From IMG/VR virus record IMGVR_UViG_3300029425_000240: 64,000 nt of DNA; one strand, given 5' to 3'. The position numbers were made by a program, and so were the translations under genes. Shown here one piece after another: positions 628 to 52,864 of this stretch (positions are counted from its first letter, which is position 1; every line of letters starts with the position of its first letter). The stretch is from a virus. The notes beneath the pieces are model-generated. The model worked only from the letters and a program-made list of their open reading frames with translations. It was not told the origin of the DNA and made no database searches.

Positions 628-1560
628 TTAATATTGTTCTGTCATTTCGTCAAGGAACTCGTCGAAATCATCCTCATCGCTATAGGATTGAACGCTATTC
701 GCTATATTTGGATGTGCGTCAGTGTGTGCGGTTGTCATGGTTTTATTGTTTGACAATTCGAATGAATCTTCTTTTATCTTGTTGTTATTATCTTTGGAGC
801 CAGGCTCAATACTCTTTGCCTTATCATTTATCAGGGCCTTGTGCTCAGTATTTTTTACGATATCTGCTGGTTCTGCTTCATGCTTTTCTGTAGGCAGCTC
901 AACATACCTGGATTCATTATCATCTTTTACATTGTCCCATAAACTCCGTTCATCAGTGTCAACCGTGTCATCTGTTATTCCTTTTTTTTGTTTTTCTTTT
1001 AGTTTAGCTCCTCTGCTTGCTGTTTTTGTCAACTCGCCGACAAAGTCGGACTCGTTACCAGATTCTATTAAAGTTCTCGTCGTCACATCAGGGCTTTTGA
1101 GTTCTGTTTGGGTGCATTTATCTCTTTCTTTTTTTGTCTGTCTTATTTCTTTCTCATCTCTTCCACCCTGAAATTTTCGTGACATTTCATTGAAAAACGA
1201 TGTATCCCCATTGACACAGTACTCTTCAAGAAAAACACCGCAAAGATATTGACGTAGTACGACTTTAATGAAATTGTTTCTGTATCCTGGTGTTATTTTA
1301 TGCAGCAAGGAAATCGCATCAGAGTCTTCCTTTCCATCCAGTACCACATGATAGTGATAATACTTCCGGAAGCTCGTCTTTGGATACTTGGCGAGCCTTT
1401 TATCATTCGTGTGTAATAATTTGACTTTATACACTTCGCCACGGGCATAAGAATTTAGTACTTGCCTGGTTGTTTCAGGAAAGGAAACTTTCCCTGTTTT
1501 ATACAGGCCAACCAGGTCCATGTCATGATAGGAATACAGTTTTACTTCTACCTTCATCAT
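628..1560 (-). CDS. hypothetical protein: folded N-domain plus K/E-rich disordered tail with acidic C-terminus; coupled to parM-like gene (possible segregation adaptor)
   Basis: ATGA overlap with upstream actin-like ATPase gene; C-terminus DEDDFDEFLDEMTEQY; adaptor role is inferred from synteny only. Confidence 0.5.
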   Translation of the reverse strand: MMKVEVKLYSYHDMDLVGLYKTGKVSFPETTRQVLNSYARGEVYKVKLLHTNDKRLAKYPKTSFRKYYHYHVVLDGKEDSDAISLLHKITPGYRNNFIKVVLRQYLCGVFLEEYCVNGDTSFFNEMSRKFQGGRDEKEIRQTKKERDKCTQTELKSPDVTTRTLIESGNESDFVGELTKTASRGAKLKEKQKKGITDDTVDTDERSLWDNVKDDNESRYVELPTEKHEAEPADIVKNTEHKALINDKAKSIEPGSKDNNNKIKEDSFELSNNKTMTTAHTDAHPNIANSVQSYSDEDDFDEFLDEMTEQY

Positions 1561-2717
1561 TCACTTTTACCTGTCCTCTCTTTTCTCAATCGTCTATAAG
1601 CGGACATATAATATCCCCTTGCGTTTGCGTAATAAATTGGAAGCTCGTTTCCATCGTTTCCAGGAATAATCTTCAAATCTTCCAATCCTGATAACGTCTC
1701 CCTGAAATATTGAATCCATGCTGCACCGGTTCCACCAGTCACAACAAGTACATCGTAATCGGTGAAATATTCTGCCATTTCATACAGTTTCTTCGCCGCC
1801 TGCGTTGCCACTTCCTTGCACGCCTTTTCAATGTATCCGTCCAACGGGATTTTTTTACTGGTCATCTGCCGGATATCAACCACCTTGAAATATCCGTCTT
1901 TCATGTATTTCCTCATTTGTGGAATACGGATATCCATCTGATAATCTTTAAAAATATACTCAGCCGCCGTCTCCAATACTCGTTTCATTCCGAGATTGTT
2001 GATAGATTCCTCCAAAACCTTCTTCCTATTGATGATTCCGTATGGGTCAAACGTGCCAAATCCAATATCAGCGATGATGATATTTTCTGCCATCAATTCT
2101 TTAGCTTCATCTCGTCGTTCTCCTTCATCATTGAACAGAATGGAATTTAAGGTTCCGGCTGGCTGAGACATGACGCTCACATCACTATTTCTTAAATTGT
2201 TTTCAAAACGAATCCATCTACCAGTACCGATTTTTACCTCATAAACACCCTGTGCTGTGAATGCGCTTTTGATTTTCGGCGCATCTGCTTTCAGGTATGC
2301 GGCTGGAAGTCCAGTTTGGATAAATGGCTTAATCTGTGGCCCTCCCTCTCTTACTTCATTGCTCATCAATCCGATAGCTACAGCCGTCCTGGCAAGAATG
2401 ATGAATTCCTTTGTAAAATATCGGTTTCTGTCAAACGTAGAACCTGTATCGTTAGTATCATCGGCTCGGACAAGGTCCTGTGCTTTTGTTCCAATCATAT
2501 ACAGGCCTTCTTCATCCCTATAATAGATATCCTCTTCATCTACCGACATCAGATTGCTTTCAATCTGTTTAACATAAGACGGAAAGCAAAACCTTTTATT
2601 CGGAGACATTCCCTTTACTCCTGAAAAACCAATATCGACAGCAATGACCCAGTGTGACACCATTGGGTTTTTACATGCAATAATTTCCTGTGCTGTATTA
2701 AATGCTTTTAAATCCAT
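1557..2717 (-). CDS. parM: actin-like ATPase, ParM/StbA (Alp) plasmid-segregation family
   Basis: Actin-fold phosphate-1 motif AVDIGFSGVKG near N-terminus and VVTGGTGAAW motif near C-terminus; GAGGAGG RBS; 386 aa. Confidence 0.7.
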   Translation of the reverse strand: MDLKAFNTAQEIIACKNPMVSHWVIAVDIGFSGVKGMSPNKRFCFPSYVKQIESNLMSVDEEDIYYRDEEGLYMIGTKAQDLVRADDTNDTGSTFDRNRYFTKEFIILARTAVAIGLMSNEVREGGPQIKPFIQTGLPAAYLKADAPKIKSAFTAQGVYEVKIGTGRWIRFENNLRNSDVSVMSQPAGTLNSILFNDEGERRDEAKELMAENIIIADIGFGTFDPYGIINRKKVLEESINNLGMKRVLETAAEYIFKDYQMDIRIPQMRKYMKDGYFKVVDIRQMTSKKIPLDGYIEKACKEVATQAAKKLYEMAEYFTDYDVLVVTGGTGAAWIQYFRETLSGLEDLKIIPGNDGNELPIYYANARGYYMSAYRRLRKERTGKSE

Positions 2718-2842: not shown

Positions 2843-2888
2843 CAAAAAAAAGAGAGCCGTATATTTTTGGCTCTCTTTTCCTTTTTTT
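2843..2888 (-). terminator. rho-independent terminator (bidirectional hairpin AAGAGAGCC..GGCTCTCTT)
   Basis: 9-bp stem, A-run before and T-run after; ends the giant-protein operon after 2887-3636. Confidence 0.6.
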
Positions 2889-3636
2889 AGAATTGTTTTT
2901 TATAAATAGAATATGTAACAAGTGCAATGCCTACTGCTAATAATACCATAAACACAAGTTTTATGCGGTTTGCAAGAGAACTTGGTTTTTCGTCTTCCTT
3001 CTCTGCTTGCTCCTCTTCTGGCGTTACTATGATTGTATTATCGTCTTTAGACGTACTCATATCGGAAGATGCATTACTATCTGTACTTGCATCCGATGAT
3101 TGTTCGCTGTTCGTACTGTCTGAAACATTTTCAGAGTCTTCTGTCTGACTGTCTTTACTATTTTTTTCAGAAAGTGCCTGTTTCTGGTCATATGTCAAAT
3201 ATGGATTGTCTTCTTCTTTCATTTCTCCATCTTTGATTCTTTGTTGTACAATTTCTTTTGCATTTTTATCCAACGCTTTCATGTTATCGCCAGTCATATT
3301 GTCAATAAAATCCTGAGCCGCTGGTGTCCAGTCGTAATCAGAATCCATATATCCCATGTTATACATTCGCTTGCAGTATTCTTCATACTCGTAAGATGAT
3401 TGAAATAATGATTTTGGACGATAAAAAGACTGCGTATACTCTTCGTCTTTCGTGTAATCATAATCACCATTCGTCGCACTTGTATCTTCTTCTCCATTAT
3501 CATCTGTAAACGTCGTAGAGTCTTCTTGTTCCGCAGCAAATGCTGGTACTACCAATGCTGACGCTACTATAGTAGAAAACATGAAAGAAACTATGATTGT
3601 TCCGGTTATTAACACTGTCATGTATTTTTTTTTCAT
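2887..3636 (-). CDS. secreted acidic Ser/Asp-rich protein with C-terminal TM anchor
   Basis: N-terminal signal peptide (MKKKYMTVLITGTIIVSFMF...AFA), low-complexity D/E/S-rich middle, C-terminal hydrophobic stretch plus KKQF; GGAGG RBS 8 nt before ATG. Confidence 0.55.
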   Translation of the reverse strand: MKKKYMTVLITGTIIVSFMFSTIVASALVVPAFAAEQEDSTTFTDDNGEEDTSATNGDYDYTKDEEYTQSFYRPKSLFQSSYEYEEYCKRMYNMGYMDSDYDWTPAAQDFIDNMTGDNMKALDKNAKEIVQQRIKDGEMKEEDNPYLTYDQKQALSEKNSKDSQTEDSENVSDSTNSEQSSDASTDSNASSDMSTSKDDNTIIVTPEEEQAEKEDEKPSSLANRIKLVFMVLLAVGIALVTYSIYKKQF

Positions 3637-3656: not shown

Positions 3657-5432
3657 TTACAACCCAGGATATCTTCCGAAATGAGCAAATCCTGAATAGT
3701 TATTTATTTTAATAGCTTTTCCTGGCGCATGGTATATTCCGTCTGTATATCCTCCAGTACAATGAAGCCAATATTTTGTACCATTTACAGTTCCTATATA
3801 AATTCCCACATGGTCTTCCCCGCCAGCATTGCCGGGCCAATGCTTTTGTCCGACATCTCCTGGTATAAGTTGACTTTCTGATATCTCTGTAAACGTGCTT
3901 GAAATTGATGGAGTTGCCCAATCCGCAGCCGACTGCCCTTCTTTAGCTGCTACTCCAGACCTCCAATAGCACTGACCTACAAATGATGAGCAATCAAGAT
4001 ATTTGGGACTTTCATATGACGGTGAGTTCCTTGCGTTCATATCATACGTCACGCCATACAGCATAACTCCCTGCTGTATAATCTCACGCCTTTCTTTTGT
4101 CACTTTACTATCCCATGTCGCCATACACTTTTTCAGTATCTCTTTCATATCATCCGGCAATTGTCCCATGTCCAGGTTTCCAGAACCACCGCCAGAGCAT
4201 TTATAATTTTCAAATACCTTTTGATAAAACTTCTGGTCCGAATATTTATATTTGCCATTTTCATCATCAGCATTAGCTCTTTCTTCACCATGGGCGATTA
4301 CTTTTGCATAAGCCTCAATGATAGAGTCATAATCCACCTCTTCTTTTTCTGCGGATTGGTTTTTACTACTTGACGCCTTGTTGTTACAATAGTCCGTAAA
4401 TGTAACAAACCCGGTTTCTTCATCAAGTTTTAGTGGCGACCTATTATATTGATTTTTTATTGCTTTAGAACTTCCACCAAATTCAAATCCCTGGACAACA
4501 CATATCAATGAATCAGTATTATAAGGTGATGGATAGACTGCTTCTTCCACTATATTCGCAAAGGCCTTTGCCGCGGCATCTATGGATTCCTGCACTGTGT
4601 ATTTTCCAGCCTCTTTTTTCTTATTTGCTAGGTTTAGCCTTTCATCTTCTCCATATTCGTCTTTCGGCGAGACATTTGCTTTGCTGCTTACCGGAGTAAC
4701 GTCTCCGTTGCTTGTATCTGCCAGCCATGAACCATTGATATGAAATAAATCAAACTTATCGCTGCCCTCTCCTTTTATATCTTTTTTCATGGCTTCATAC
4801 TCATCTTTATGCTCATTAAACCTTGCTTGCGCAATTGCCTTAAATATCTCCTTATACGTTTTAAAACCATTATCTTCCGCCGCTTTGTCCATCAGGTCTT
4901 CATACTTTGCAACCTCATCAGACAAAACCGCTTCGCAGCTATTACTCAGCTCAACTGTTTCATACATTCCTTCAAATTCATTCCAATTCGTAGAAGAGTA
5001 AAAATCTTTCATTTCTGATTCTGTATCTTCATTTTTCCAAAATATTGGCGTTTTTGTTCCATCAGTATTTAAATCAGATATATTATAAATCCCCTCCGCC
5101 AAAGCGAACGGCATGCCTCCGACGGTTAATCCCGCCCATTCGTATGCTTTATAATGAAACGTAGATAATCCTTTCATTATTTTTTCCAATGCTTTTTTTT
5201 CTTTTTTTGGCATTGTCGTTGGTGTTGGGGTCGCTTTTTTTTGCCCGGATTTATTTGCTTTTGATTTGACGGTTGAAGTTCCTGTAGTAGAGGCCACAGC
5301 CGCATAAACCGGTACGCGAGACGCGGCAATACTTGTGAGTATAAGTGCTAAAACAAGGATTATGGCCACGACTCCCGCAATTAAGCGTTCTCTATGTTTA
5401 TTTTGTTTTTGTTTTTTTCTCAATTTTATCAT
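3657..5432 (-). CDS. membrane-anchored NlpC/P60-family cell-wall peptidase
   Basis: C-terminal ~120 aa has the NlpC/P60 Cys...His...His arrangement (YLDCSSFVGQCYW ... HVGIYIG ... HCTGG); N-terminal TM anchor; start re-assigned to ATG at 5432 (track starts at 5480 upstream of the GGTAGGAGG RBS). Confidence 0.7.
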   Translation of the reverse strand: MIKLRKKQKQNKHRERLIAGVVAIILVLALILTSIAASRVPVYAAVASTTGTSTVKSKANKSGQKKATPTPTTMPKKEKKALEKIMKGLSTFHYKAYEWAGLTVGGMPFALAEGIYNISDLNTDGTKTPIFWKNEDTESEMKDFYSSTNWNEFEGMYETVELSNSCEAVLSDEVAKYEDLMDKAAEDNGFKTYKEIFKAIAQARFNEHKDEYEAMKKDIKGEGSDKFDLFHINGSWLADTSNGDVTPVSSKANVSPKDEYGEDERLNLANKKKEAGKYTVQESIDAAAKAFANIVEEAVYPSPYNTDSLICVVQGFEFGGSSKAIKNQYNRSPLKLDEETGFVTFTDYCNNKASSSKNQSAEKEEVDYDSIIEAYAKVIAHGEERANADDENGKYKYSDQKFYQKVFENYKCSGGGSGNLDMGQLPDDMKEILKKCMATWDSKVTKERREIIQQGVMLYGVTYDMNARNSPSYESPKYLDCSSFVGQCYWRSGVAAKEGQSAADWATPSISSTFTEISESQLIPGDVGQKHWPGNAGGEDHVGIYIGTVNGTKYWLHCTGGYTDGIYHAPGKAIKINNYSGFAHFGRYPGL

Positions 5433-5534
5433 CCTCCTACCGCTTACAAACACAGCTTGCGGTTTCCTTGCCTGACGCAATGACGGGCGGAGTACTCCGC
5501 CCGTACCACAATCACGCGTCGAACATACACAATA

Positions 5535-8500
5535 TTACGACTGTAGCATTGCCTGAATAGTAGCGATATCTGAATCCATCTCGGCTAAACGCTGTGCTTT
5601 ATATTGTGCACCAGGCCTTTCGTAATTCGTAATAAAGAATTCGCCTGCTTCTCTTGCAGTCGTACATGCATAGAATCCTTCTACTCCGCTCGGGGACCAA
5701 TCACTCGTATCTTCCGTAAATTCGCATTCCAAACGTTTTAGCTGGCCTTCAAGCGTATTGTACTGATATCCATTTGCATTACACCATTGAACAAGTTTTG
5801 TTCTGCGTCCAAACGACCATTGAGTTAAGCCATATCCAGTACCGCCAGTTTCTTCTTCTGTATAATTGAATGAGCACTCTCTATAGATATTTACCAATAC
5901 TCCCATTGCCTGTTCAGAGGTTAATTTTCTCGACATTTTTGTTGTCAGGAATTCATATACTTCTTTAGCAACTTTTGCTTGGTCTCCATCCCACGTTCCA
6001 GGATTGAAACTGTCTGTGGTAGAATTTTCTCCTTCTGAGCATGTTCCACTCAGACTCTTATAATAATCCGGCTTTTTAATATACTGGATTGTTCGTTTTA
6101 GCGTATTCTCTTTAGCTCTATATGTATCTGCACTTGCGTCACTGCTTTCATAGTTAGGGTTTTCCTTATCAAAATCATCTACTCCATAGATGTTTTTCTC
6201 CCACCAGTCATCAAGATTTAACAGACTATCAAAATGCAGGGTAATAACTGCTCCACTGTACTTTGTATGGCCCGGACACGGTGCATACTTTGTTTCATAA
6301 ACGATGTTTCCATCCGAGTCCGTTTTATATCCGGTGTAGTATTCGATTTGGATATCTCCGTGCTCGTTTCTGACTTGTCTTGTCTTCGTTTCCATAACCG
6401 GTACTTGATAAGACATACCATCGGTATTATTTTGACCAACAATCCTTCCATCATCGTTATATACTGGATTGATTGTTCCGTCTGGGCCTGCATGGTACTG
6501 CTTAACGGCTGTTCCCGTGATAATATGTGAAGCATTAAAAAGACCAATCAAAGCCGAATATCTCAAATCATCATAGCCGCCTGCTTTGTAATTTGTCAGG
6601 TCTAAGCCTTTTTCATTCAGGTATTCTATCAGCTTCCATTTATCATCAACTTCTTTATCCGTCATACCTTTTTGATATGTGTCGTTTGTTTTTGCCTCGT
6701 CAAAGCCGGAAGCATCTTTTTTGCTAATGATTGTGCTTTTTGTTGAAGTACTAGAACTTGCCTCAAAATCAAACATAGCCATTACCATAGAAATCAGCTC
6801 TTGATTATTATTATAGAATCCATACACTTCACCTTTTGCATCTGCTTTTACATATCCTTCCGGAGTAGGTGTTGGGGTAATACCATCTGGTACTTTTTGC
6901 TCTTCCGGAAAAGTGTAGTATATGTTTTTATCTCTGTTTAAAATGTCGCGATAAACATCCTGGTCTATTTCCTGACGATACAGGATATCGGCATTTACGC
7001 TTACCGACGAAGCAGCTGAACCAGTTCCTATCGTTGATGAATCAAATGTTCCATCCAAAATACTTCCCATATTTGTTGCAGTAGTAGGAATCAATCCATT
7101 TCCATTCAATCCTGCAGGTTTAGAGCCATAACCAATAAATTCTGCAAAATCTCGGTGGCTTCCTAAGTGATGTCCATATATTCCTTCTTGCTCTGCTGGA
7201 TAACCAGTATCTTTCCAAGCCTTTTCATCCGCAATAATAATGTACATAGTATTGGATGCTGGTTGGCTGCCTATTGTGAACTCGTTATTAAATTCCACTT
7301 TAAGGACATCTCCTACTTTTCCCCAATACGAGCCAAAAGCCGCCATATACATCTTTGTTCCGTTCTGGTCGACGACAGCGTAATTTCCATTGCCTTCAAC
7401 TGTTACCTTGTTATCCAACGCCTGTTGCCGTGTTCCGGAAGCCCAATTACCATGAATATATTGGTATGTAAACTCATAATTCCACCAGGTCCCCTCAGTC
7501 ACATCATATAACCCCTGAACCTTAGAACTATCACCCTTTTGTAGCTGTGGTGCATTCATCGTTGAGCCATCTGTACCAGACGCCGAGCCTGTGCTTGACG
7601 TTCCACCAAAATGATTCGATAATTCACTTCTGAACGAATTGTGGCACAAGGTTAAGACGTCAACCATTTCTTGTAAAACTTCAGTAGTGTCTTCATCGCC
7701 TGCATCATAATAGACTTCATTTCCTGCGTTCTTCACATATGAAATAATGCAAAGGATGATTGCCAATACAATAATCAATGCTATGATTATAGGTCCTAAT
7801 GCTGCTACTAATGCTGAAATCAATGTCTGTATCAACTTTATCGCAGCCTGGATTGCTTTAATCGCGGCCTTTTGCGCTACTTTGGCGACTTTTAAAACGC
7901 CTTTTCTGACAACTTTCGTGCCTTTCATCCGTAATTTTTTTACACCTTTTTTTAGCGTTTTTTTAAGTCCGTTTTTCCTAAGATACTGGAAACCTTTTCT
8001 CGCCGCTCTTCCGCCCATATGAACTGCATGAATACCTGCTTTTGCACCTCTATATCCTGCGACCGCAGCATTTCCTATTGACTTTCCAAGCCTGATTGAG
8101 GAATTTAGCAACCTTCCAGCGTTCTCTCTCATCCATTTTATTTTTCTTGATGTGCGATACGCTTTCATAGCAGAGCCAACAATGATTGACTCCATCATGA
8201 GGAGTCCTCGCATCGTATAATCATCGCCCATATATCTATTAGCCAATGATTTTATTTTTCGGTATCCATTTTTAACCGCTTTGACAGCACCTTTGGCATA
8301 TGCCGTTAATGTTGTTTCTGTCAAATTAAGCAAAAACATCCTTCTTTGCAGTTTAAATACATTTCTTATCAACTCTTTCGTTTCTTTTGAAGTTGTTCCT
8401 GCTTTTAATAATTTTTTTAGCGCCTTTTTATCTGACGGAAGTCCCCTTGCCTGAAGCACATATGGCAGCGCGGCAGCATAAAACGCTCTTTCTACTTTGA

Positions 8501-11500
8501 AATCGCCTATGCTCTGGTCCCCGAGCACACCTTTTCGTATAATTTTTTCTCTTGTATTTTCATATACATTCAGATAATCCGTTATTGCACTTGCTGCTTC
8601 TGGAGACAATCCGCCGCCAGCCAGAAGTTCTTTTAATGTATCTGTATTCTCAGTAAGACCAAGGTGCTTAAGTTTTGCCTTTGCGTCAAACAGATATTGA
8701 CGTTCAATATCGCTCAAATAGCGTGTTTCCAAAAACACATTCATTTGATAAAACTGTTTGCTGTTTCCACTGATTGATGTCAATATTTTATCGTAATTTG
8801 CAACCAGCGTATTTAGGTCTAATTTCAAATCAATCGACTTCATATTAGCTGCTGCGCCTGCAAGCAGCTGTGCTCGAAAGACTGAATGCATTGCCATTTT
8901 TTGTTTAAAAATAAGCTGAGAGACTTTGCCTTTGTTTAATGCTTTCTGGTACAAAAGTCCACTATACGATTCTGTTACTTTGTTTGATATAAACTTATCT
9001 CCAACTTTCACAAAATCTGCGTCTGTAATAGGCTGGTTTAATGCTGGGGCTATTGTCATCGCCATTGTCATTTGTTTTGCATTGACCTTAACATCTCTTT
9101 TAATATGGAATTCCAGGCCAGCCAACGTTTTGGTCGTTCCTATGCTTCCATCCGTACTTATATCAAGGACAGTGCCTGTAGCCGTATAAATCTTGCCGCC
9201 ATATACAGCCGCGTTTTTCCAACCAACAAAAGCTCTGTCTTTGTCTACTGAATATACGTTCAATACAATTCCATCTATTCTGATAGTCCCGTCAGAACGG
9301 ACTGTGTATCTTTTTGATTTTCCATTTCTGGATATAGTTACCTGATTTCCTTCTTTTAGGACAAACATTCCAACGTCTGTGAAATTTGAGTTCTTTACGA
9401 CGCCTGGAATTCCCAGTGTATGTATAGACGGTCTCGTTATATTAAAATTCTGTGTTGCGCCAGATGAGGTTGGTCCCACTGGGCCAGATGTAACGCCTGG
9501 AACGTTCAATCCGGAACGAGTCCCCGCTGCTATCTCTCTCGCATTCGCAAGAGCCTGCTCTACATTTATCTTTATCGTTTCTACATCAGCCTGACCTGCC
9601 AAAGCATAGGAATCGGCGATTTGTTTTCCGCTTATCTGCGTTGCTGCCTGCGCACTGTTCACTGCACTGGCATATGCAGCAAGTTCGCTGGCCGACATGA
9701 TTGATGCATCTTTCAGCATCACCATACCTTCCGCTTTGTCCGTAGCAGTCTTTGCGGCATCAGAGGTGGCCTTTGCAGCTTCTCTTGCCGCTAACGCGGC
9801 TGCTACTGCAGTTACAGCTGCAGCTCCGGACACAGTACCTCGTACAGTATGTGTCTGACCTGAGCCTGACGGTACTGTGATTTCAATAACTTTCGTTTCG
9901 TCCTTTTTTTTGATAGATTGAAGGCCATTTTTACTTTCACTCGCAACCGAAGAACCTCTCTTTTGTGGATACACCACATCAGTTTTATCAGACTTTAAGA
10001 CACGGTTTTCGGTGACTTTTCTGTCAGCCTGTCCATCCTTTCTGCCAACGTAGCTATAGGTCTCTCCTGGACCGTATGGTTCTTTCCTCTTCTCATCTAC
10101 TGGAGCCTGTCCCGAAGATTCATATGAATCCCTGCTATATGTCTGCTTTCGTTCATTGATGCCGCCAGACGCCCTATCCGCATCTTGATTTTCTTGATTA
10201 GCAGCCCTATTCCTGAGAACCTCTTCAATAGCACTCGCTCCAGGCTTTTCATCCCGATGGTTTCCTACATCTTGCCGCTGGTCATGCGTCATTGTTTTTG
10301 CTTCGGAAGGCTGGTGACTGTCCCCATCTAATCCTGGATATTGATTCGAGGCAGTATGTGAAGCTGGCATCTGAGAGATTGGTCTTCGGACAATGTTATC
10401 GGCCTGGAACCTTTCACTTTTAGATAAATCATCTACTGCAGATTGACGCCTAGATGTCACCTCTGATGCACTATGTTCTCTTGTACTACTCTTTTCATAT
10501 TTTCTTTCTACTTCTCCAATTCCGTCAGAGAATGGTGGCTGCACACTTCCTGTATGCTTATCCGCAAGCCCCTGTCTTTCCAGATTTTCATAACCACGGT
10601 CTTTATGCTCGGCTTCTCTCTGTCCAGCCATTTCATATGAACTGCTTACATATCTTTTTGCATTTTCTGAAGCCGGTTCAGCAGACGGACGTTTATCTGC
10701 GCCAAAGTTTAAGACAGAGTGTGAATCTCCATTTTCTTTTCTTGCGATGCTGTCCGTACTATTCGCTGTGGCATCATAGGCTCTTCTTTCATTCCGTGCT
10801 ACGAATGTCGAAGATTGGTCTTCATTCTTAGTAGCATCATATGCCTTGGGTTTAAACGATGCGTACGTATCCTCACCGGTATCCTTGTGAGATTGAATAT
10901 CAGCAGATTCCCGTTGCCCAGCCTGCTCATATGAATCATTAATGTATTTTTTACTTTCTGATGCTTCTCTTTTATATTGTGCGGTTCCATTTGACGCGTT
11001 TCCTGAGTCTGGATTGCTGATGGCATTCCCGTCATATACTGATTCCTTTTCATGCTGAGGAATGCTGCTCGCTTTATACGGTTCGCTGCTATTCGGCTTA
11101 TCGAATCCCTGTGTGCTTCTATAACCTTCTGTATCATGCTCTCTGCGTTTTTCTACAATAGAGCCATCTGACTCCGCGTGTTTGTTTATACCGGCATCCT
11201 TCTTGTATATAAAACCTTCGTTATATTCACTGCCTTGATTTGGTCCAACCCTTTCAGTATTGCGATTTGTGTGGTTATTCTCAGCTTCATATAAACGGTT
11301 TTCCTTATCAGTACCACCATAACCTCCGTCATATTGATGGCGCTTATAAGTTTCACCAGTATCTCTTTGTCCAGACTTCTCATACGAATCAGATATATAT
11401 TTGTTTTCCGATTCAGTCCTTCTTGTATTATCTACTGCCGCTTCTGAGCCTGCCTCTGAATGATATTGAGACGTATCCTCAGCCTTCTTTCGGTCAAGTA

Positions 11501-12848
11501 CGCCAGCACCCACCGAATCCTCACGGCTTCCCCGCGATGACTGGTACCTTGATTCGTTATGAACGTTTGCACGATTTCTTTCATCCCTTACCTCGGGTCT
11601 GTCCTGTCCAAAAAAATCAGAATAAGTATCTCCTTTTACAACATGACTTACATCCTGAGCGCTTTTCGTGTTAAGTTCTTCATGACCAGATATTTGTTCT
11701 ACATTTTCCCGCTTTGGTTCAAATACTTGAGGACCAGTTCTATTTATGTCTTCTGTAATATGGGAATCTTTTTCCGCATAGTCATTTGTGATACGAGAAG
11801 AATACTCATTTGTCGCAGACCTGTTATTATCTTTCTTTTCAGGCTCCGGCCTTTCATCTCTCTTATCATTCTTATGCGACCTGTCTTGTGCATCTGATAA
11901 TGTGTCATTGTCCTTGGTCTGCATCTGCTGATACAAATCAGACGACTTTCGAGCTTCGCGCTCGTACCCAGACGCTGAACGTGGATTCAAACCCTCGTGC
12001 GACGTTAAAATTGAAGTATTTGCCTCATGAGCGGATTCTTGCCGGTCATGGATTTCCCGTTCTTCGTTAAACGTATCTGGTTCATAATACTGAGTTTTAC
12101 TCTCATTGTGTTTTGTCAATTCGTCCGAAATATTACCTTTCACCACATTTGTAACATCATCTGCACTTTTACTCTTATCGTGTATACTTGTGATATTAAC
12201 AGTTGTTTCAGGTCTCTCAGCCAGTTCCTTTTGCCTTAAAGCTTCTCTTTGCCGTTGCTGTTCTTCAGCCCTGGCCATGGCCTCTCCACGTTCGTCTTCA
12301 AGTTTGGATTCCAGAGACATACGATGCTCATTATCATATCGCTCCTGTTCCGCAGCACGAGACAATGCTTCACGGCGTTCTTCGTCAAGATGAGCCCGCA
12401 TCTCGTCACCTTTTCGGTATTTTTCACTGTCCCTCTGGTTTCCGGTATGTTCTCCACCTACGATATTCTTTAAAACTTGGTCTTTCGTTGAAAGCCCCTG
12501 TGGTTCTTCCGGTCCTGGCTCCTCTTCGCCCTCTTCTACCTCTTCATCTGCAGAGGCATCTTCAATGGTTCTTTCACCATGTCCATCTTCTTGTCTCTCA
12601 AGCTGAAGTTCTCGCAGATATTCATAAAATTCCGGATACTTATCTGGAATTTCTAAAATTTCCGCATTATCAAAAAGTTCATCCAGGTCGACTCTGCTTA
12701 AAGCCTCATCTGCCGCTTTAAAGCTAATCCTTTCCTCGTCTGATATATCTGGGGAATCCTGTTTTCCGTCTATATCTATCATATCCAGACATAAACCTCT
12801 CTGAAACAGATTGGCCAATAAGCTTATATATTCTTCTTTTGGCAACAT
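5535..12848 (-). CDS. giant (~2440 aa) multidomain membrane protein: disordered acidic/Arg-rich N-terminal ~1000 aa, Ala-rich helical region, Lys-rich amphipathic segment plus single TM, C-terminal peptidoglycan-hydrolase region ending in a phage-tail-lysozyme/SLT-like domain (GYGLTQWSFGRR...)
   Basis: Single uninterrupted frame; start re-assigned to ATG 12848 after GGGAGGTGAAAAGG RBS; K-rich segment then LISALVAALGPIIIALIIVLAIILCIISYV TM; architecture resembles VirB1/PrgK/TcpG-type conjugation hydrolases (inference). Confidence 0.75.
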   Translation of the reverse strand: MLPKEEYISLLANLFQRGLCLDMIDIDGKQDSPDISDEERISFKAADEALSRVDLDELFDNAEILEIPDKYPEFYEYLRELQLERQEDGHGERTIEDASADEEVEEGEEEPGPEEPQGLSTKDQVLKNIVGGEHTGNQRDSEKYRKGDEMRAHLDEERREALSRAAEQERYDNEHRMSLESKLEDERGEAMARAEEQQRQREALRQKELAERPETTVNITSIHDKSKSADDVTNVVKGNISDELTKHNESKTQYYEPDTFNEEREIHDRQESAHEANTSILTSHEGLNPRSASGYEREARKSSDLYQQMQTKDNDTLSDAQDRSHKNDKRDERPEPEKKDNNRSATNEYSSRITNDYAEKDSHITEDINRTGPQVFEPKRENVEQISGHEELNTKSAQDVSHVVKGDTYSDFFGQDRPEVRDERNRANVHNESRYQSSRGSREDSVGAGVLDRKKAEDTSQYHSEAGSEAAVDNTRRTESENKYISDSYEKSGQRDTGETYKRHQYDGGYGGTDKENRLYEAENNHTNRNTERVGPNQGSEYNEGFIYKKDAGINKHAESDGSIVEKRREHDTEGYRSTQGFDKPNSSEPYKASSIPQHEKESVYDGNAISNPDSGNASNGTAQYKREASESKKYINDSYEQAGQRESADIQSHKDTGEDTYASFKPKAYDATKNEDQSSTFVARNERRAYDATANSTDSIARKENGDSHSVLNFGADKRPSAEPASENAKRYVSSSYEMAGQREAEHKDRGYENLERQGLADKHTGSVQPPFSDGIGEVERKYEKSSTREHSASEVTSRRQSAVDDLSKSERFQADNIVRRPISQMPASHTASNQYPGLDGDSHQPSEAKTMTHDQRQDVGNHRDEKPGASAIEEVLRNRAANQENQDADRASGGINERKQTYSRDSYESSGQAPVDEKRKEPYGPGETYSYVGRKDGQADRKVTENRVLKSDKTDVVYPQKRGSSVASESKNGLQSIKKKDETKVIEITVPSGSGQTHTVRGTVSGAAAVTAVAAALAAREAAKATSDAAKTATDKAEGMVMLKDASIMSASELAAYASAVNSAQAATQISGKQIADSYALAGQADVETIKINVEQALANAREIAAGTRSGLNVPGVTSGPVGPTSSGATQNFNITRPSIHTLGIPGVVKNSNFTDVGMFVLKEGNQVTISRNGKSKRYTVRSDGTIRIDGIVLNVYSVDKDRAFVGWKNAAVYGGKIYTATGTVLDISTDGSIGTTKTLAGLEFHIKRDVKVNAKQMTMAMTIAPALNQPITDADFVKVGDKFISNKVTESYSGLLYQKALNKGKVSQLIFKQKMAMHSVFRAQLLAGAAANMKSIDLKLDLNTLVANYDKILTSISGNSKQFYQMNVFLETRYLSDIERQYLFDAKAKLKHLGLTENTDTLKELLAGGGLSPEAASAITDYLNVYENTREKIIRKGVLGDQSIGDFKVERAFYAAALPYVLQARGLPSDKKALKKLLKAGTTSKETKELIRNVFKLQRRMFLLNLTETTLTAYAKGAVKAVKNGYRKIKSLANRYMGDDYTMRGLLMMESIIVGSAMKAYRTSRKIKWMRENAGRLLNSSIRLGKSIGNAAVAGYRGAKAGIHAVHMGGRAARKGFQYLRKNGLKKTLKKGVKKLRMKGTKVVRKGVLKVAKVAQKAAIKAIQAAIKLIQTLISALVAALGPIIIALIIVLAIILCIISYVKNAGNEVYYDAGDEDTTEVLQEMVDVLTLCHNSFRSELSNHFGGTSSTGSASGTDGSTMNAPQLQKGDSSKVQGLYDVTEGTWWNYEFTYQYIHGNWASGTRQQALDNKVTVEGNGNYAVVDQNGTKMYMAAFGSYWGKVGDVLKVEFNNEFTIGSQPASNTMYIIIADEKAWKDTGYPAEQEGIYGHHLGSHRDFAEFIGYGSKPAGLNGNGLIPTTATNMGSILDGTFDSSTIGTGSAASSVSVNADILYRQEIDQDVYRDILNRDKNIYYTFPEEQKVPDGITPTPTPEGYVKADAKGEVYGFYNNNQELISMVMAMFDFEASSSTSTKSTIISKKDASGFDEAKTNDTYQKGMTDKEVDDKWKLIEYLNEKGLDLTNYKAGGYDDLRYSALIGLFNASHIITGTAVKQYHAGPDGTINPVYNDDGRIVGQNNTDGMSYQVPVMETKTRQVRNEHGDIQIEYYTGYKTDSDGNIVYETKYAPCPGHTKYSGAVITLHFDSLLNLDDWWEKNIYGVDDFDKENPNYESSDASADTYRAKENTLKRTIQYIKKPDYYKSLSGTCSEGENSTTDSFNPGTWDGDQAKVAKEVYEFLTTKMSRKLTSEQAMGVLVNIYRECSFNYTEEETGGTGYGLTQWSFGRRTKLVQWCNANGYQYNTLEGQLKRLECEFTEDTSDWSPSGVEGFYACTTAREAGEFFITNYERPGAQYKAQRLAEMDSDIATIQAMLQS

Positions 12849-12862
12849 CCTTTTCACCTCCC

Positions 12863-13279
12863 TTAATCTGAATTTTTTGCTGCTGCAATAATCTCCGACA
12901 GCCTTAGTGTATGGATATTACGAACTTTAAACATCTCGTATTTTCTCGGGTCATCCAAAATCACATCAATTTTATTTGTCATTGCATAAAGTATTGCATA
13001 TGCTTCATCTTCCGATAATATTTCATCATTTCCGATAATACTTCGGAGAACTATCTTACTCGTTTTAAGCTCTGCTCTTTTGATTTCGCTCCTGAATATC
13101 TTTAGACTGTCTAAATCCAGGTTCTTCGCAAAATAGTCGTATATCTCCGAAGTCGTGTAGACCTCATCGTATAGATTCAAAATCAGGTATTCATAGCCTG
13201 AACGAAATAAAGTCTGTATAATTTCTTTATCAGCAATGAGTGCAGATTTTGCTTCTGGCAAATCACTGTATTTTGTCAA
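12863..13279 (-). CDS. hypothetical protein (138 aa), first gene of the giant-protein operon
   Basis: TTG start preceded by AAGGAGGAAAGGAAA; conserved box 98 nt upstream; no recognisable domain. Confidence 0.5.
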   Translation of the reverse strand: MTKYSDLPEAKSALIADKEIIQTLFRSGYEYLILNLYDEVYTTSEIYDYFAKNLDLDSLKIFRSEIKRAELKTSKIVLRSIIGNDEILSEDEAYAILYAMTNKIDVILDDPRKYEMFKVRNIHTLRLSEIIAAAKNSD

Positions 13280-13730: not shown

Positions 13731-14497
13731 TCGTAAATACTTTGTTTCATTGCTGTATCTAGCGCTATAGCCCATATCACTCCAAAGCACATTGCGCTTA
13801 GCATAAAAATACTTGCGCCCATATTCACGAACAGTCCTGAAATGCAAGCAACAGCAGAAACTAAAGCATTTGCCCAATTTCTTTTCAATAGAAAGATAAG
13901 CAACACAATTAGCATCCCTGCAATTGGAAAATACGCCAACCACCCTTGCTGCAATGGGCTTAACATTAAATGACAGTCTCCTACATGTAAAATTTCAAAA
14001 ATGGCTTTTTTTACTTTTTCGAAATACCATGCACCTTCTCCTGCATTATTAAAGACAGAATCCCACTGCTTATCGTTTAAATACAGCGCCATTTTAAACA
14101 ATGATTTTTTATTTTGTACATTGTCTGGCAAATTTAATGCAAATAAAAACGCATGGCGGTTTGTTTTAAATGACAGCACGTATTCAAAATTCGACATCAC
14201 GCGCTGTAGCTTACTGTTCCATGTATACGCTGTATTAACAAGATAATTTATAAAATACGTGATTAACAACATGATTCCAATATACACCGGAAAGAATAAA
14301 TTTACTTTTGCTGTTTCCGTCTTTTTTTTATTCTTTTTTATCCCTATTACCCAAAATAGTCCCTTCACCGTTGACCCGATAATCACTGCCGAACAAAAAG
14401 CGACAAAAATAACAGACCATGCGATTGACGTTGCACCAAAATATTTTTCAAAGAAATAAGAAGACTCAGCAAGCAACGATTTTAATATTCTCAACAC
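13673..14497 (-). CDS. polytopic integral membrane protein (274 aa)
   Basis: GTG start after AAGGAGGG RBS; at least 5 hydrophobic helices; last ~20 codons lie inside repeat module B (13641-13730), so the true C-terminus is uncertain. Confidence 0.5.
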   Translation of the reverse strand: MLRILKSLLAESSYFFEKYFGATSIAWSVIFVAFCSAVIIGSTVKGLFWVIGIKKNKKKTETAKVNLFFPVYIGIMLLITYFINYLVNTAYTWNSKLQRVMSNFEYVLSFKTNRHAFLFALNLPDNVQNKKSLFKMALYLNDKQWDSVFNNAGEGAWYFEKVKKAIFEILHVGDCHLMLSPLQQGWLAYFPIAGMLIVLLIFLLKRNWANALVSAVACISGLFVNMGASIFMLSAMCFGVIWAIALDTAMKQSIYEGRKPPADKKSSAGQRFRS

Positions 14498-15030
14498 ATC
14501 CCTGCCCTCCTTATGTCTTCGAAAATCTTACAAATTGACTCCCTGCATTTTGAACTTGGATGCAGTGTGTCCAGATTTGAAAAATAGAATTTCGACAATT
14601 CAATTATCATAAGTTCAACATATCTTTGTTCCTTTTCTGTCATCTCCCCTCTTTCACTTATATCTTTAAACCATACAGCCGCATCCATATATTGTTTTAC
14701 TTTTTCCTCCGCTACAGCATTGACTTTTTGTTCTACCTGTGCAGTTCCTTTTTCTGATTTTTTTCTTTCTTTTTCTTTCTTATCTTCGTCACTCCAGAGG
14801 TCGTCTTCTGTGGATTCATCTTCATCAACAATCTCATCATCTCTGTTATCTTTATACATCCACATGCGGTCCGTTTCGTCTTCGCACTTTTTATCAATCT
14901 TTGCCTGCGCATGAGATGCAATAAGAGCCTCTCCGCTCTCATTATCAACAAACTCCATGTCTGAATAATCAGCTATATGCTCTACCAATGGATTAATTAC
15001 TTTTCTGCTTTTTTTTCTTCCTCTGGACAT
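14491..15030 (-). CDS. hypothetical acidic protein (179 aa)
   Basis: GGGGGAAATAAT-ATG RBS; overlaps helicase stop; D/E-rich middle. Confidence 0.5.
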   Translation of the reverse strand: MSRGRKKSRKVINPLVEHIADYSDMEFVDNESGEALIASHAQAKIDKKCEDETDRMWMYKDNRDDEIVDEDESTEDDLWSDEDKKEKERKKSEKGTAQVEQKVNAVAEEKVKQYMDAAVWFKDISERGEMTEKEQRYVELMIIELSKFYFSNLDTLHPSSKCRESICKIFEDIRRAGMC

Positions 15031-20313: not shown

Positions 20314-22863
20314 TCAATCATTATCATCATCATAATCATCAAAATCTACATCGTTATTTTTTTGTGAAGCCATACAATGAGCACCATTTTTACATCCTTT
20401 TTTTAATTCTTCAAATTTATCTTCTGACAGGATATCATTAACTTTATATAAATCCTGTCTGGATATGTTTCCTCGTTTTTTCTTGGATATTGACAACTGT
20501 AATCGTTCTGCTACTTTAACGATATTACATTGGTCATTCTTTGCGCCGAACCAGCACACATGTCCATCACTGATTCCGTTGCAGGCAACGGCTAAATCCT
20601 CAAATTCCCCGTCGTGTTGCTCAAAAGCCCTGTTTATCAGACCTTTTGCAAGAGCAATATCCATATTTTTTCCGTCAAACAATATCGTTGTTTCGTCGTT
20701 ACCCATAGACATCTGGATTGTGTCTTCCAGTAATTCACTGTACTTTGTAATCATTGAATTCCTTGTTTTGTTATTATCTGCATCCTTAATCAGATAATAT
20801 CCATCTTCTTCCGGATAGTTGACCAGAATTCCGTCCAGCACTTCTTCCAGTGTTTTAGGCTGGTACTTTTCGCTTACTGTATCATTATTTTCTTCCTGCT
20901 CGGCTATCTCCTCATATTCTACTGACTTATCAACGCACGAAAACTCTTCGTCCTGCTCCAGGAAATAAAAGTTTTTTTCATCCCCATCACCTGTTTTCAT
21001 AAACTGTGGATGCTTTTCCAGTGGATATTTACTATCATAAAATGGGTCGATTCCTCGCATCATGACAATACATTTGTCAAACGGCATGGTCATTATCTCA
21101 TCTGGAAGCATCAATTCACGTCCTGTTTGGTTAAACGATAAATTGCCTCCGCTCTTGCCCACGGGCGTGGATTTACTTCTCGACGTGATGGTACCTTTTC
21201 CAAGTTTTTTACTGAAATAATCTGCCGTAGTCTGCTCATTTGTACCAAGACAGATTGCGGTGTCACAGTTACCGATGATTGTCTCATAGTCATCCTTATA
21301 CAGCATTTTTATCTGTGCAATAGACTGCAGGACAATTGTTGTTGATATATTATATTTTCGGCAAGTGGAAATCTTCTGTGGGAATTCCGGAATCTTGCCG
21401 ATGTTGGCGAACTCATCGAGCAGGAACCTTACATGATATGGAAGCCGGCTATTCGGTATTGTGGCACCCTTATAATATAAAGATTCAAACATCTGAGAGA
21501 ACAGCATGGAAATCAAGAAGTTAAATGTGCTGTTCGTCTGCGGAATGATTGCAAAAAAGCACGTCAATTCATCACCCACCTTCTCCAGTTCCACGTTATC
21601 ATCATCTGTCAGATTCTGGATTGCCGGAATACTAAATGGGTTCAGTCTAACAGCAGCTGAAATCAAAATGGATTTCAACGTTTTTGTTCCACCAAGTTTG
21701 AACGTCTTATAGTTGGTGAGGCAAAGTGAAGTTTCTATTTTATCACGCAGCCTTCCAATTTCTTTTTGGTCCGTAACCTCCACAGCATCCAGCACCGTCT
21801 GTTTCTTTCCTGTCTTTTTATCTGTAATTGTTTTTTTACCGATTTTTTTTGTTCCATCAAACAATTCATCAAGTGGCATATCTATAGAGAAGCCAAATTC
21901 AGACGATGGCTTCTGCCCTGGCCGGCCGTTTTCATCCATCTGTGCCAACTGTACCATCCACAAAATGGTTGAGAACTTCCTAAACTCTGCATCAGCAATA
22001 TCAACAAGATAAAATACCAGCGCTGAGAGCAAAGCCTTTTCCGATTTATCCCAGAACGGGTCGCCGCTTTTTTGGTCCGGACCTGTTGTGTTTGAAATAA
22101 AACAGTCCACCAGAATACTGACATCTGTTTCGCTCCTGACGTATCGGAATGGATTGTACTTATTTGAATGAGACATATCGACCAAGTTAAATACTTTTAT
22201 CTTATACCCATTCTCAACCAATACGTTATGCATTGATTTCAGAAGCTCTCCGGAAGGGTCTGTTACTATGTAAGAGCAGTTCATCTGTAATACGTTTGGC
22301 TTTATAAAAAATCGTGATTTACCAGTACCAGCACCACCGACAATAAAAACATTGTTATTCAAATGTGTTTTCATATCAGCTGTTGACAGCCTTACCAATT
22401 CCGATTCTATCATGTTAGGGTTTCCTGGTACTGGTGGTGTCTTTTTATTGTTCAGGTTTTCCCCACCCATTTTTTTTGTCAGACCAGGCTCGTCACTAAA
22501 AGTCTTTTCACCAAACGGCTCCGAATGTCCTTGGTTAAATTCTTCAACTTTCTTATTCCAATGAGCCGAGCCGGCCTCTTTACCGGCCGCATCATGTTTC
22601 CATTTTTGCTCATATATCATGAAAAGCGCTACACCAATCCAATATATAAACGTCCATCTCAAGCATGTACCCCAGCTTACCGGATTTAACCAATAGAAGA
22701 TACCAAAATGGGATACCGCTTCCACTGCTGAAAAAATACTTGCTCCATCCTGTGTATGCTTCTGATAGCCAAATGCACCAGCTATCATCAGGCCAATAAA
22801 CCACAAGATGCCATACAAGACAAAGGCAAGCTTTTTCTGTTCAAGTTCTTTATCATCTTTCAT
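20314..22863 (-). CDS. type IV secretion coupling protein (VirD4/TraG/TraD family ATPase)
   Basis: N-terminal TM helices, Walker A VGGAGTGKSRF, large TraG/TraD-type domain; GGGAGGGG RBS. Confidence 0.8.
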   Translation of the reverse strand: MKDDKELEQKKLAFVLYGILWFIGLMIAGAFGYQKHTQDGASIFSAVEAVSHFGIFYWLNPVSWGTCLRWTFIYWIGVALFMIYEQKWKHDAAGKEAGSAHWNKKVEEFNQGHSEPFGEKTFSDEPGLTKKMGGENLNNKKTPPVPGNPNMIESELVRLSTADMKTHLNNNVFIVGGAGTGKSRFFIKPNVLQMNCSYIVTDPSGELLKSMHNVLVENGYKIKVFNLVDMSHSNKYNPFRYVRSETDVSILVDCFISNTTGPDQKSGDPFWDKSEKALLSALVFYLVDIADAEFRKFSTILWMVQLAQMDENGRPGQKPSSEFGFSIDMPLDELFDGTKKIGKKTITDKKTGKKQTVLDAVEVTDQKEIGRLRDKIETSLCLTNYKTFKLGGTKTLKSILISAAVRLNPFSIPAIQNLTDDDNVELEKVGDELTCFFAIIPQTNSTFNFLISMLFSQMFESLYYKGATIPNSRLPYHVRFLLDEFANIGKIPEFPQKISTCRKYNISTTIVLQSIAQIKMLYKDDYETIIGNCDTAICLGTNEQTTADYFSKKLGKGTITSRSKSTPVGKSGGNLSFNQTGRELMLPDEIMTMPFDKCIVMMRGIDPFYDSKYPLEKHPQFMKTGDGDEKNFYFLEQDEEFSCVDKSVEYEEIAEQEENNDTVSEKYQPKTLEEVLDGILVNYPEEDGYYLIKDADNNKTRNSMITKYSELLEDTIQMSMGNDETTILFDGKNMDIALAKGLINRAFEQHDGEFEDLAVACNGISDGHVCWFGAKNDQCNIVKVAERLQLSISKKKRGNISRQDLYKVNDILSEDKFEELKKGCKNGAHCMASQKNNDVDFDDYDDDND

Positions 22864-23953: not shown

Positions 23954-23978
23954 ATATTTTTCCTCCTTTATCTTTATC

Positions 23979-23994
23979 TCCAATATGCAAAATA
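23979..23994 (-). promoter_or_regulatory. conserved upstream box (TTTTGCATATTGGA), coupling-protein operon
   Basis: ~30 nt upstream of ATG 23953. Confidence 0.5.
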
Positions 23995-24032
23995 AAAAAA
24001 ATATCGGCACGGCTAGGTTAAAAAGGGATTCA

Positions 24033-24046
24033 TTTCGCATATTAAA
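24033..24046 (+). promoter_or_regulatory. conserved upstream box, plus orientation (TTTCGCATATTAAA)
   Basis: 45 nt upstream of plus-strand ATG 24088; orientation follows gene strand. Confidence 0.5.
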
Positions 24047-24087
24047 AGAAAGAAATAAAAAATATCGGAAAAAGGAGTTAAAATACA

Positions 24088-24768: not shown

Positions 24769-24805
24769 AAGCGCGAAATAAATAAAAGTATCGTTTACGA
24801 TTTTT

Positions 24806-24842
24806 ATCTTCGTGTCCAGATATGGATGCGAAGATTTTTTAC
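24806..24842 (+). terminator. rho-independent terminator after plus-strand 226-aa gene
   Basis: ATCTTCG..CGAAGAT stem followed by TTTTTT. Confidence 0.55.
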
Positions 24843-24886
24843 TTCCATACAGAAATTTTTCGCAAAAAACGACCGGTCTGTAAATT

Positions 24887-24901
24887 TTTCGGCATATTAA
24901 A
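24887..24901 (+). promoter_or_regulatory. conserved upstream box, plus orientation (TTCGGCATATTAAA) in front of tnpB
   Basis: 35 nt upstream of tnpB ATG 24933, after terminator 24806-24842. Confidence 0.5.
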
Positions 24902-24932
24902 TATGTAATGAAAAGGCAAGGAGGTGAGACGA

Positions 24933-52838: not shown

Positions 52839-52864
52839 TTCTTTTCCTCCTTCTTTTTTATATT

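Follow-up and report, generated by a model that had tools for sequence, protein, structure and literature searches.

The 64-kb window analysed here (64,000 nucleotides of IMG/VR virus record IMGVR_UViG_3300029425_000240) carries on its minus strand a giant gene that lies inside a Gram-positive conjugative type IV secretion system (T4SS) operon. Its product is probably a PrgK-type (VirB1-like) T4SS muramidase with a greatly expanded cytoplasmic arm, which may act as a docking platform. From the open reading frame (ORF) list and its translation, the gene is delimited as follows:

5535-12857, minus strand: giant ORF, uninterrupted, 2440 aa from a GTG codon at 12857
5535-5537, minus strand: stop codon of the giant gene

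A GGGAGG Shine-Dalgarno sequence that overlaps this GTG is found 8 nt before an ATG at 12848, and many database copies open with MLPKEEY and are 2437 aa long. The true start is likely this ATG (2437 aa). A preliminary description of the DNA had combined the coordinates 5535-12848 with a length of 2440 aa; the length fits the GTG start, and the coordinates fit the probable real start because the GGGAGG precedes the ATG and the 2437-aa copies exist. Residues are numbered below from the GTG (2440-aa version).

Eight consecutive parts were distinguished in the protein, some of them with the help of AlphaFold2 (AF2) models scored by the predicted local distance difference test (pLDDT):

12378-12857, minus strand: N-terminal domain, aa 1-160, with a helical part, an acidic linker and the motif LSxKDxVxKNIV(E/G)GEHTGxxRDSEKY; conserved
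9858-12377, minus strand: hydrophilic region, aa 161-1000 (~840 aa), defined by composition; prone to insertions and deletions (indels) and fast-evolving
9078-9410, minus strand: all-beta domain, aa ~1150-1260, from phmmer mapping and AF2 strands of pLDDT 73-80
8358-8990, minus strand: helical domain, aa ~1290-1500, with internal repeats (L/R)GL(T/P).(N/D)...LK.LL..G.L and AF2 helices of pLDDT 71-90 (aa ~1349-1509)
7836-8357, minus strand: polybasic helical juxtamembrane region, aa 1501-1674, isoelectric point (pI) 11.5, defined by composition
7734-7835, minus strand: single transmembrane segment, aa 1675-1708, hydropathy peak 3.38, predicted N-in/C-out
5988-7733, minus strand: ectodomain without fold match, aa 1709-2290, with YYDAGDEDT..QEMVDVLTLCH, FYNNNQELISM..FDF, LFNASH and CPGH...AVITLHFD
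5538-5987, minus strand: muramidase-type lysozyme domain, PF18013 at aa 2295-2424, catalytic Glu2327 at nt 5877-5879

The lysozyme domain provides the sole Pfam match of the giant protein (PF18013, Phage_lysozyme2; E 1.8e-23, 83.7 bits versus a gathering cut-off of 28.2), and no NCBIfam model matches the protein. Its only PDB sequence match is gp13 of phi29 (E 3.5e-6 and 8e-11), which is also the only fold match of its AF2 model (pLDDT 83-93; E 3.6e-5, probability 1.0, template modelling score (TM-score) 0.68). Glu2327 aligns with E45 of gp13 and E573 of PrgK and is invariant in alignment A1. Throughout the family, distant clade included, neither the catalytic Glu nor the GYGL.QW motif varies, which argues for retained catalysis. 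The preliminary description had proposed a phage-tail-lysozyme/SLT-like (soluble lytic transglycosylase-like) C-terminus; the first half of this assignment holds, but the domain is of the gp13/PrgK muramidase type and not SLT.

The protein has one hydrophobic segment. The 30 residues before it contain nine K+R and no D+E, whilst the 30 residues after it contain one K+R and eight D+E; by the positive-inside rule, the N-terminus is predicted inside and the C-terminus outside. A topology of one transmembrane helix with N-in/C-out orientation is thereby predicted, in agreement with the single membrane span after a basic segment described earlier. The extracytoplasmic part, which had been put at ~850 residues, is also predicted here but is shorter: 732 aa in total, of which ~580 aa lie outside the lysozyme domain. 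The motif columns of the ectodomain are invariant in alignments A1 and A2. No PDB sequence or fold match was obtained for aa 1709-2290, and in the AF2 model of the ectodomain, built from 9 sequences (pLDDT 50), the lysozyme part alone is usable. A relationship between a first module, ecto1 (aa ~1770-1960), and the 3D/DPBB domain that ends the distant-clade proteins was considered and rejected (hhalign probability 0.06%).

On the cytoplasmic side, the Kyte-Doolittle means over aa 101-1000 range from -1.3 to -1.9, with 16-31% D+E, 13-20% K+R and 16-33% S/T/N/Q, and the charge-hydropathy boundary puts these residues on its disordered side. The region aa 161-1000 is thus probably disordered, and the disordered N-terminus of ~1000 aa announced by the preliminary description agrees with these values. 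From aa 1001 to 1700 the composition is ordinary, becoming strongly basic nearer the membrane (net +15 and +23 per 100 aa over aa 1501-1700). The N-terminal domain is present in most full-length relatives and has nine invariant positions in alignment A5 (F15, L21, A49, D54, L58, K70, Y71, F74 and H134); Pfam scans of 14 members and a PDB profile search gave nothing credible for it. The beta domain occurs in one or two copies in relatives (phmmer mapping), and the helical domain is kept family-wide, as far as the distant clade (E 2.4e-9 for P0090/P0091). AF2, run on shallow alignments, was confident for three parts only: aa ~1158-1234 in the beta domain, a portion of the helical domain (aa ~1349-1509) and the lysozyme domain. 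No Foldseek match of the cytoplasmic model was found in the PDB below E 1e-3. In one 1178-aa relative (P0085), the N-terminal domain, the beta domain and the beginning of the helical domain are fused to an entirely different C-terminus with multiple transmembrane segments and without lysozyme; the cytoplasmic module therefore appears portable.

The hydrophilic region and the Ala-rich segment that follows it carry two kinds of short repeated motifs:

11361-11402, minus strand: motif A copy 1, aa 486-499, KYISDSYEKSGQRD
10908-10949, minus strand: motif A copy 2, aa 637-650, KYINDSYEQAGQRE
10614-10655, minus strand: motif A copy 3, aa 735-748, RYVSSSYEMAGQRE
10101-10142, minus strand: motif A copy 4, aa 906-919, TYSRDSYESSGQAP
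9585-9626, minus strand: motif A copy 5 ('anchor'), aa 1078-1091, KQIADSYALAGQAD; immediately before the beta domain, in the Ala-rich segment
12129-12176, minus strand: motif B copy, aa 228-243, KSKSADDVTNVVKGNI
11625-11672, minus strand: motif B copy, aa 396-411, NTKSAQDVSHVVKGDT

In the giant protein motif A reads K-Y-I-x-D-S-Y-E-x-A-G-Q-R. Its core, [DS]SYxxxGQ, occurs at aa 490, 641, 739 and 910 (nt 11390, 10937, 10643 and 10130) and at aa 1082, whereas 20,000 shuffles of the N-terminal 1100 aa gave a mean of 0.003 and a maximum of 1; in a six-frame translation of the window it is confined to the giant ORF. At least four repeats had been noted before. These four are real and a fifth is present, but they are short motifs only: long internal repeats were sought in the N-terminal third, and a self-BLAST of aa 1-1010 was empty. 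Across the family the consensus is K-[YF]-[IVQ]-x-D-S-Y-[E]-x-A-G-Q-[RK]-[ED], with 65 copies over 20 of the 23 relatives examined, 1 to 10 per protein, spaced by 48 to ~170 aa. A copy at the anchor position, GK(Q/E)(I/V)ADSY..AGQ.DAET, is found in 11 of these 23 relatives; in the AF2 model, copy 5 lies in a low-confidence helix and is not docked onto the beta or the helical domain. Motif B follows the pattern K.A.DV(S/T)(H/N)VVKG at aa 231 and 399, with a related IVGGEHTG at aa 132, and motif B-like copies were seen by eye in two relatives (P0062 and P0068). Three members of the distant clade (P0090, P0091 and P0094) have hydrophilic N-termini without motif A; another repeat, approximately (K/R)YQxExxNQ(F/Y)LxDAQxxW, was noticed by eye, with three copies in P0094.

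The linker that bears the motifs is the variable part of the protein. In three relatives (P0003, P0053 and P0058) the indels of at least 5 aa all fall within aa 255-906; a fourth (P0060) has additional indels at aa 1005 and aa 1121 and a 5-aa insertion in the ectodomain. One of the indels among close relatives is a 186-aa insertion that adds one motif copy. Identity to P0058 is 78% in the hydrophilic region versus 95-98% elsewhere (98% in the ectodomain), and identity to P0060 is 38% in the hydrophilic region, 72-75% in the folded cytoplasmic region and the ectodomain and 56% in the lysozyme domain. These comparisons support a linker that would grow by indels and duplication, the motif being retained while the spacers diverge, as the preliminary description had suggested in proposing expansion by duplication. 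Spacers that change fast between short motifs that stay conserved are the pattern to be expected of multivalent docking sites.

The family to which the protein belongs is small, of the human gut and uncharacterised before. A word-indexed search returned 62 proteins, most of them copies with 96-100% identity that come from human-gut assemblies, on contigs of up to 416 kb, and exact or near-exact copies are present in hundreds of assemblies. The sole named copy is a 'phage tail tip lysozyme' (WP_146207128.1) of Blautia sp. BCRC 81119; as the GTDB species representatives gave no relative, the host is known from this one NCBI Blautia genome only. When 1.84 billion cluster representatives were searched exhaustively by HMMER with aa 1096-2295 as query, only 34 hits were obtained, ~15 of them full length (1568-2753 aa); at 50% identity the family amounts to ~15 clusters. 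Mapping of query pieces onto the members gave a common layout: N-terminal domain, variable hydrophilic region, one or two beta domains, helical domain and basic segment, then the transmembrane helix, the motif YYDAGDEDT..QEMVDVLTLCH, two ectodomain modules and the lysozyme. Some members have an extra insert after the transmembrane helix, in which NlpC/P60-like motifs were seen by eye in P0068, P0074 and P0075; the inserts of P0068 and P0075 had no Pfam NlpC/P60 match at E <= 1e-3, and that of P0062 gave a weak GDSL match below the cut-off (23.4 versus 32.9 bits). In the distant clade (P0090-P0094; 1166-1504 aa; E 2.4e-9 to 5e-4), the hydrophilic N-terminus, basic helical region, transmembrane helix and lysozyme are all retained together with part of the ectodomain, and an additional 3D domain stands at the C-terminus. 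Among known plasmids searched by tblastn, only the lysozyme domain was matched, on two Enterococcus raffinosus megaplasmids.

The genes around the giant gene place it in a conjugation operon:

20314-22863, minus strand: VirD4-type coupling protein (Pfam T4SS-DNA_transf, E 7e-70), upstream in the same operon block
12863-13279, minus strand: 138-aa protein directly upstream, acidic (pI 5.0) and cytoplasmic; its stop codon adjoins the ribosome-binding site of the giant gene
3657-5480, minus strand: NlpC/P60-type endopeptidase, downstream neighbour, listed length 607 aa, with M17 (nt 5432) as the likely start
2887-3636, minus strand: acidic secreted protein, 249 aa, with signal peptide, pI 4.2 and C-terminal transmembrane segment; syntenic in relatives
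1557-2717, minus strand: actin-like ALP_N gene, after the two hydrolase genes
628-1560, minus strand: 310-aa protein gene, neighbour of the ALP_N gene and overlapping it; the partner is ~256-331 aa long across loci

Upstream on the same strand are VirD4, a Topo III-like topoisomerase, a RecD2-like helicase and three small proteins. In longer contigs with an identical 310-aa gene, the region beyond the window start holds two small genes, a VirB6-like protein with multiple transmembrane segments, PrgI (VirB3), an 815-aa VirB4 and three paralogues with multiple transmembrane segments. The same gene order surrounds P0061, P0114 and P0070 (L005-L007, ~45% identical), and a core of coupling protein, helicase, giant protein, NlpC/CHAP and actin-like protein is also found around the distant P0091 (L008/L009, ~25% identical). 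A VirB8-like (NTF2) gene was not recognised in the locus.

Both downstream genes named by the preliminary description were recovered. The 607-aa neighbour scores just under the Pfam cut-off for NlpC/P60 (22.8 versus 23 bits), and has an N-terminal transmembrane segment (aa 33-51) and a Cys-His-His triad, DCSSF...DHVGIY...LHC; its homologues match NLPC_P60, CHAP and Amidase_5. The secreted acidic protein is the 249-aa product listed above. That description had also likened the giant protein to T4SS hydrolases of the VirB1/PrgK/TcpG type whilst noting its unusual size and cytoplasmic domain. With VirD4 upstream and PrgI/VirB3, VirB4 and VirB6-like genes beyond the window start, the context confirms the interpretation as a T4SS hydrolase, and PF18013 and the topology are those of PrgK. 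Between the lineage of the window and that of P0114, identity is 82% for VirB4, 73% for VirD4, 77% for the actin-like protein, 54% for the NlpC/P60 protein and ~44% for the giant protein; the giant protein is thus among the fastest-evolving parts of the machine.

Several features of the neighbourhood were noted in passing. The 138-aa acidic protein is syntenic (44% identity in the L006 lineage), and its size and position are reminiscent of secretion chaperones or adaptors. The actin-like and partner genes remain beside the hydrolases in the distant clade (L008, 15642-17559; 42% and 38% identity, respectively), and this pair may form a partition system within the T4SS operon, or else have a functional link to transfer. 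In L001 (12297-13244 and 16278-19941), four paralogous proteins with multiple transmembrane segments (315, 448, 401 and 359 aa) flank PrgI and VirB4; one equivalent matches TrbL_2 weakly in relatives, and they look like several VirB6-like paralogues in one T4SS.

We compared the giant protein with PrgK of Enterococcus faecalis pCF10 (DELTA class). PrgK has an intracellular N-terminal domain that is poorly modelled by AlphaFold and whose role is not known, a transmembrane helix at residues 254-274, and a muramidase as its active domain, with catalytic Glu573 and phi29 gp13 as its only fold relative in the PDB (Sun et al. 2024, PMC11323569). In our own Pfam scan, the 871-aa PrgK matched PF18013 at aa 544-719 (E 2.6e-29) and, in addition, CHAP; its gene (L010, 11609-14224) has the same PGAP name as WP_146207128.1, 'phage tail tip lysozyme'. 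Like PrgK, the giant protein is encoded in a T4SS operon and combines a cytoplasmic N-terminus, one transmembrane helix and an extracellular hydrolase, which here too is a PF18013 muramidase with a catalytic Glu and gp13 as sole PDB fold relative. Both have a polybasic cytoplasmic juxtamembrane region: the last 253 cytoplasmic residues of the giant protein (aa 1420-1672) have 23% K/R and a net charge of +42, and the 253 residues of PrgK have 28% and +49. Because the Pfam domain, the gp13 fold match, the Glu, the topology and the polybasic segment are shared, a PrgK-type channel hydrolase with an expanded arm is the reading we consider likely. The differences lie in size and modularity. The cytoplasmic part is ~1,670 aa versus 253 aa in PrgK (about six-fold) and adds the N-terminal domain, the disordered motif array, the beta domain and the helical domain; the ectodomain includes ~580 aa without fold match; and whereas PrgK joins LytM, MUR and CHAP in one chain, the giant protein is without LytM and CHAP, the Cys-peptidase being encoded by the separate adjoining gene.

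The pairing of a glycosidase with an NlpC/P60 or CHAP peptidase in association with a T4SS is known from CwlT (ICEBs1), TraG (pIP501) and Orf14 (Tn916). In those cases both activities reside in one protein, in contrast with this locus, where they are split over two proteins anchored by transmembrane segments. CwlT, TraG and Orf14 are ~330-370 aa long with little or no cytoplasmic domain, and the giant protein is ~7 times larger. The resemblance to the lysozyme domain of the phi29 tail-knob protein gp13 (PDB 3csr/3csq) is limited to fold and catalytic Glu: the giant protein has a transmembrane helix and a cytoplasmic arm, whereas gp13 is a soluble virion protein in a phage context. Full-length gp13 is 365 aa, and its solved chains have 159 and 324-334 residues. 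It also carries a C-terminal LytM domain (PMC11323569). Known Gram-positive VirB1 homologues are all membrane anchored (PMC12857230). The class of T4SS muramidases is already known; what is unusual here is the size and modularity of the cytoplasmic arm.

From these elements the following mode of action can be proposed. The single transmembrane helix would anchor the protein in the donor membrane with its N-terminus inside, and the ectodomain ending in the lysozyme (Glu2327) would open the thick wall locally at the site of channel assembly. The adjoining membrane-anchored NlpC/P60 endopeptidase probably cooperates with the muramidase, and the two could represent a split version of the single-protein combination in PrgK, TraG and CwlT. 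Our best guess for the function of the arm, from its sequence, is multivalent docking: a flexible platform that would tether a cytoplasmic conjugation factor at the wall-opening site. Candidates are the coupling protein, the relaxosome or helicase, and the co-conserved actin-like protein. Alternatively, the arm might couple hydrolase activity to the state of the machine.

A number of points weigh against this interpretation. The muramidase activity, the channel role, the topology and the binding of a partner to the motifs are all predicted. Motif A is not universal, since three relatives (P0073-75) are without it and the distant clade has other motifs. Pfam found neither LytM nor CHAP in the giant polypeptide, and outside PF18013 there is no significant sequence similarity between the giant protein and PrgK; a relationship between the cytoplasmic domain of PrgK and the basic region of the giant protein was examined and rejected, the resemblance being compositional bias only and not significant. 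Finally, the AF2 models are poor outside the three domains (mean pLDDT 50 and 55), which leaves the ectodomain and the N-terminal domain without an assigned fold.

In Gram-positive T4SSs, the way in which substrate processing in the cytoplasm is linked with the channel across a wall of 30-100 nm is an open question (PMC11323569, PMC12857230), and two alternatives give the giant protein a part in this link. According to the first, which we hold to be unlikely, it would be the missing trans-envelope organiser: the motif arrays would capture copies of a conjugation factor, and the transmembrane helix and ectodomain would couple this capture to wall opening, amounting to a VirB10-like relay on a PrgK scaffold. 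Candidates for the captured factor would again be the coupling protein and the relaxosome, or else the co-conserved actin-like filament, whose tip could bring a plasmid of >300 kb to the channel. The second, to which we give slightly less credit again, makes hydrolysis secondary and the protein a VirB10-like coupler that would relay signals or energy from cytoplasmic ATPases or from the substrate to the wall channel. The protein is indeed bitopic, large conserved domains lie on either side of its membrane segment, and it is conserved in the operon core; moreover, no Gram-positive homologue of VirB10 is known and a component still to be identified likely does its job (PMC12857230). This support is, however, purely architectural. 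The giant protein has no sequence or fold similarity to VirB10/TrbI (no Pfam match and no fold match for the beta-barrel domain), and PrgK has the same topology without such a role having been shown.

It is decidedly improbable that the protein is mainly an adhesin or wall-binding anchor, whose ectodomain would bind donor or recipient peptidoglycan and stabilise mating pairs. Systems that use inactive VirB1 homologues as adhesins are cited in PMC12857230, ~580 aa of the ectodomain are without catalytic assignment, and the contrast in identity between two lineages given above (~44% for the giant protein versus 82% for VirB4) would fit a part specific for the host envelope. Against this, the catalytic Glu and GYGL.QW are invariant even in the distant clade, and the sortase-dependent Ig-like surface proteins of the element could serve adhesion.

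The least probable alternative, a phage-derived tape-measure protein or tail-lysin (from a prophage tail module or remnant) that would measure the tail or be ejected to pierce the wall, has in its favour the names of PF18013 ('phage tail lysozyme') and of the NCBI copy, a layout of long helical region, hydrophobic segment and C-terminal wall-degrading domain as in tape-measure proteins with a C-terminal lysin, and the fact that several top BFVD fold matches of the cytoplasmic model are tape-measure proteins (best E 7.6e-4), but it is already largely refuted: these matches do not superpose (TM-score ~0.1, root-mean-square deviation 36 A, over low-confidence long helices) and are read here as generic helix similarity, neither PHROG nor Pfam gave a tape-measure match, tblastn against 50,697 phage records was empty and no relative was found in IMG/VR contigs, no capsid or tail genes flank the giant gene in four lineages, where the conserved neighbours are all conjugation genes (T4SS and DNA processing), and bona fide PrgK bears the name 'phage tail tip lysozyme' as well. 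The preliminary description had named a tape-measure protein with tail genes as the finding that would reclassify the locus, and none was found in these searches.

The PrgK-type interpretation has consequences beyond this gene. Conjugation hydrolases are mislabelled by the automatic name 'phage tail tip lysozyme', which may contribute to the viral classification of such elements; the family is a marker for the conjugation module of abundant, very large elements of human-gut Bacillota; and the short, countable motifs together with the three conserved domains provide handles for finding the cytoplasmic partner.

Contigs carrying the giant protein reach 380-416 kb. By size and gene content, with Rep_3, ParA and ParB outside the window, the element resembles the 'Hodor' conjugative megaplasmids of human-gut Bacillota, as these are presented in the main text and searchable supplementary text of the preprint (bioRxiv 10.64898/2026.02.21.707213), to which the following statements on Hodor refer. 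Hodor markers are Rep_3, ParA and ParB, a size of >300 kb and a conserved surface module with a ~7,300-aa protein. Shared features are a T4SS with VirD4, VirB4 and a cryptic, hard-to-detect VirB6, a ParM-like protein and a separate helicase, as well as sortases, surface proteins, TnpB and plasmid-borne DnaN, SSB, sigma factor and FtsH. The preprint states that 'Phage_lysozyme2 domains [were] frequently identified'; the giant protein is not described in those parts of it, and the two 'giant' proteins of Hodor (~7,300 and 2,642 aa) are secreted S-layer/MBG proteins. No canonical relaxase was seen in the window. Two genes without Pfam match are candidates, a 179-aa gene after the RecD2-like helicase (14491-15030, minus strand) and a 464-aa gene before VirD4 (22853-24247, minus strand); in Hodor, a short MOBH-like HD nuclease adjoins the helicase. 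Other genes assigned in the window are:

24924-26534, plus strand: TnpB/Cas12f-like ORF, 536 aa (TNB domain, E 3e-16)
26886-28037, minus strand: DnaN-like clamp
30453-31307, minus strand: SSB
34549-35568, minus strand: sigma-70-type factor
41375-45743: Ig-like surface proteins
46198-47034, minus strand: sortase
48517-49089, minus strand: type I signal peptidase
52110-52955, minus strand: SIR2
53522-55345, minus strand: FtsH

Rfam and tRNA scans of the 64-kb window found nothing. The TnpB ORF, in a region otherwise on the minus strand, is probably an IS200/605-type insertion between the conjugation and replication genes. A change of sign in GC skew was observed at 24001-26000, around this ORF.

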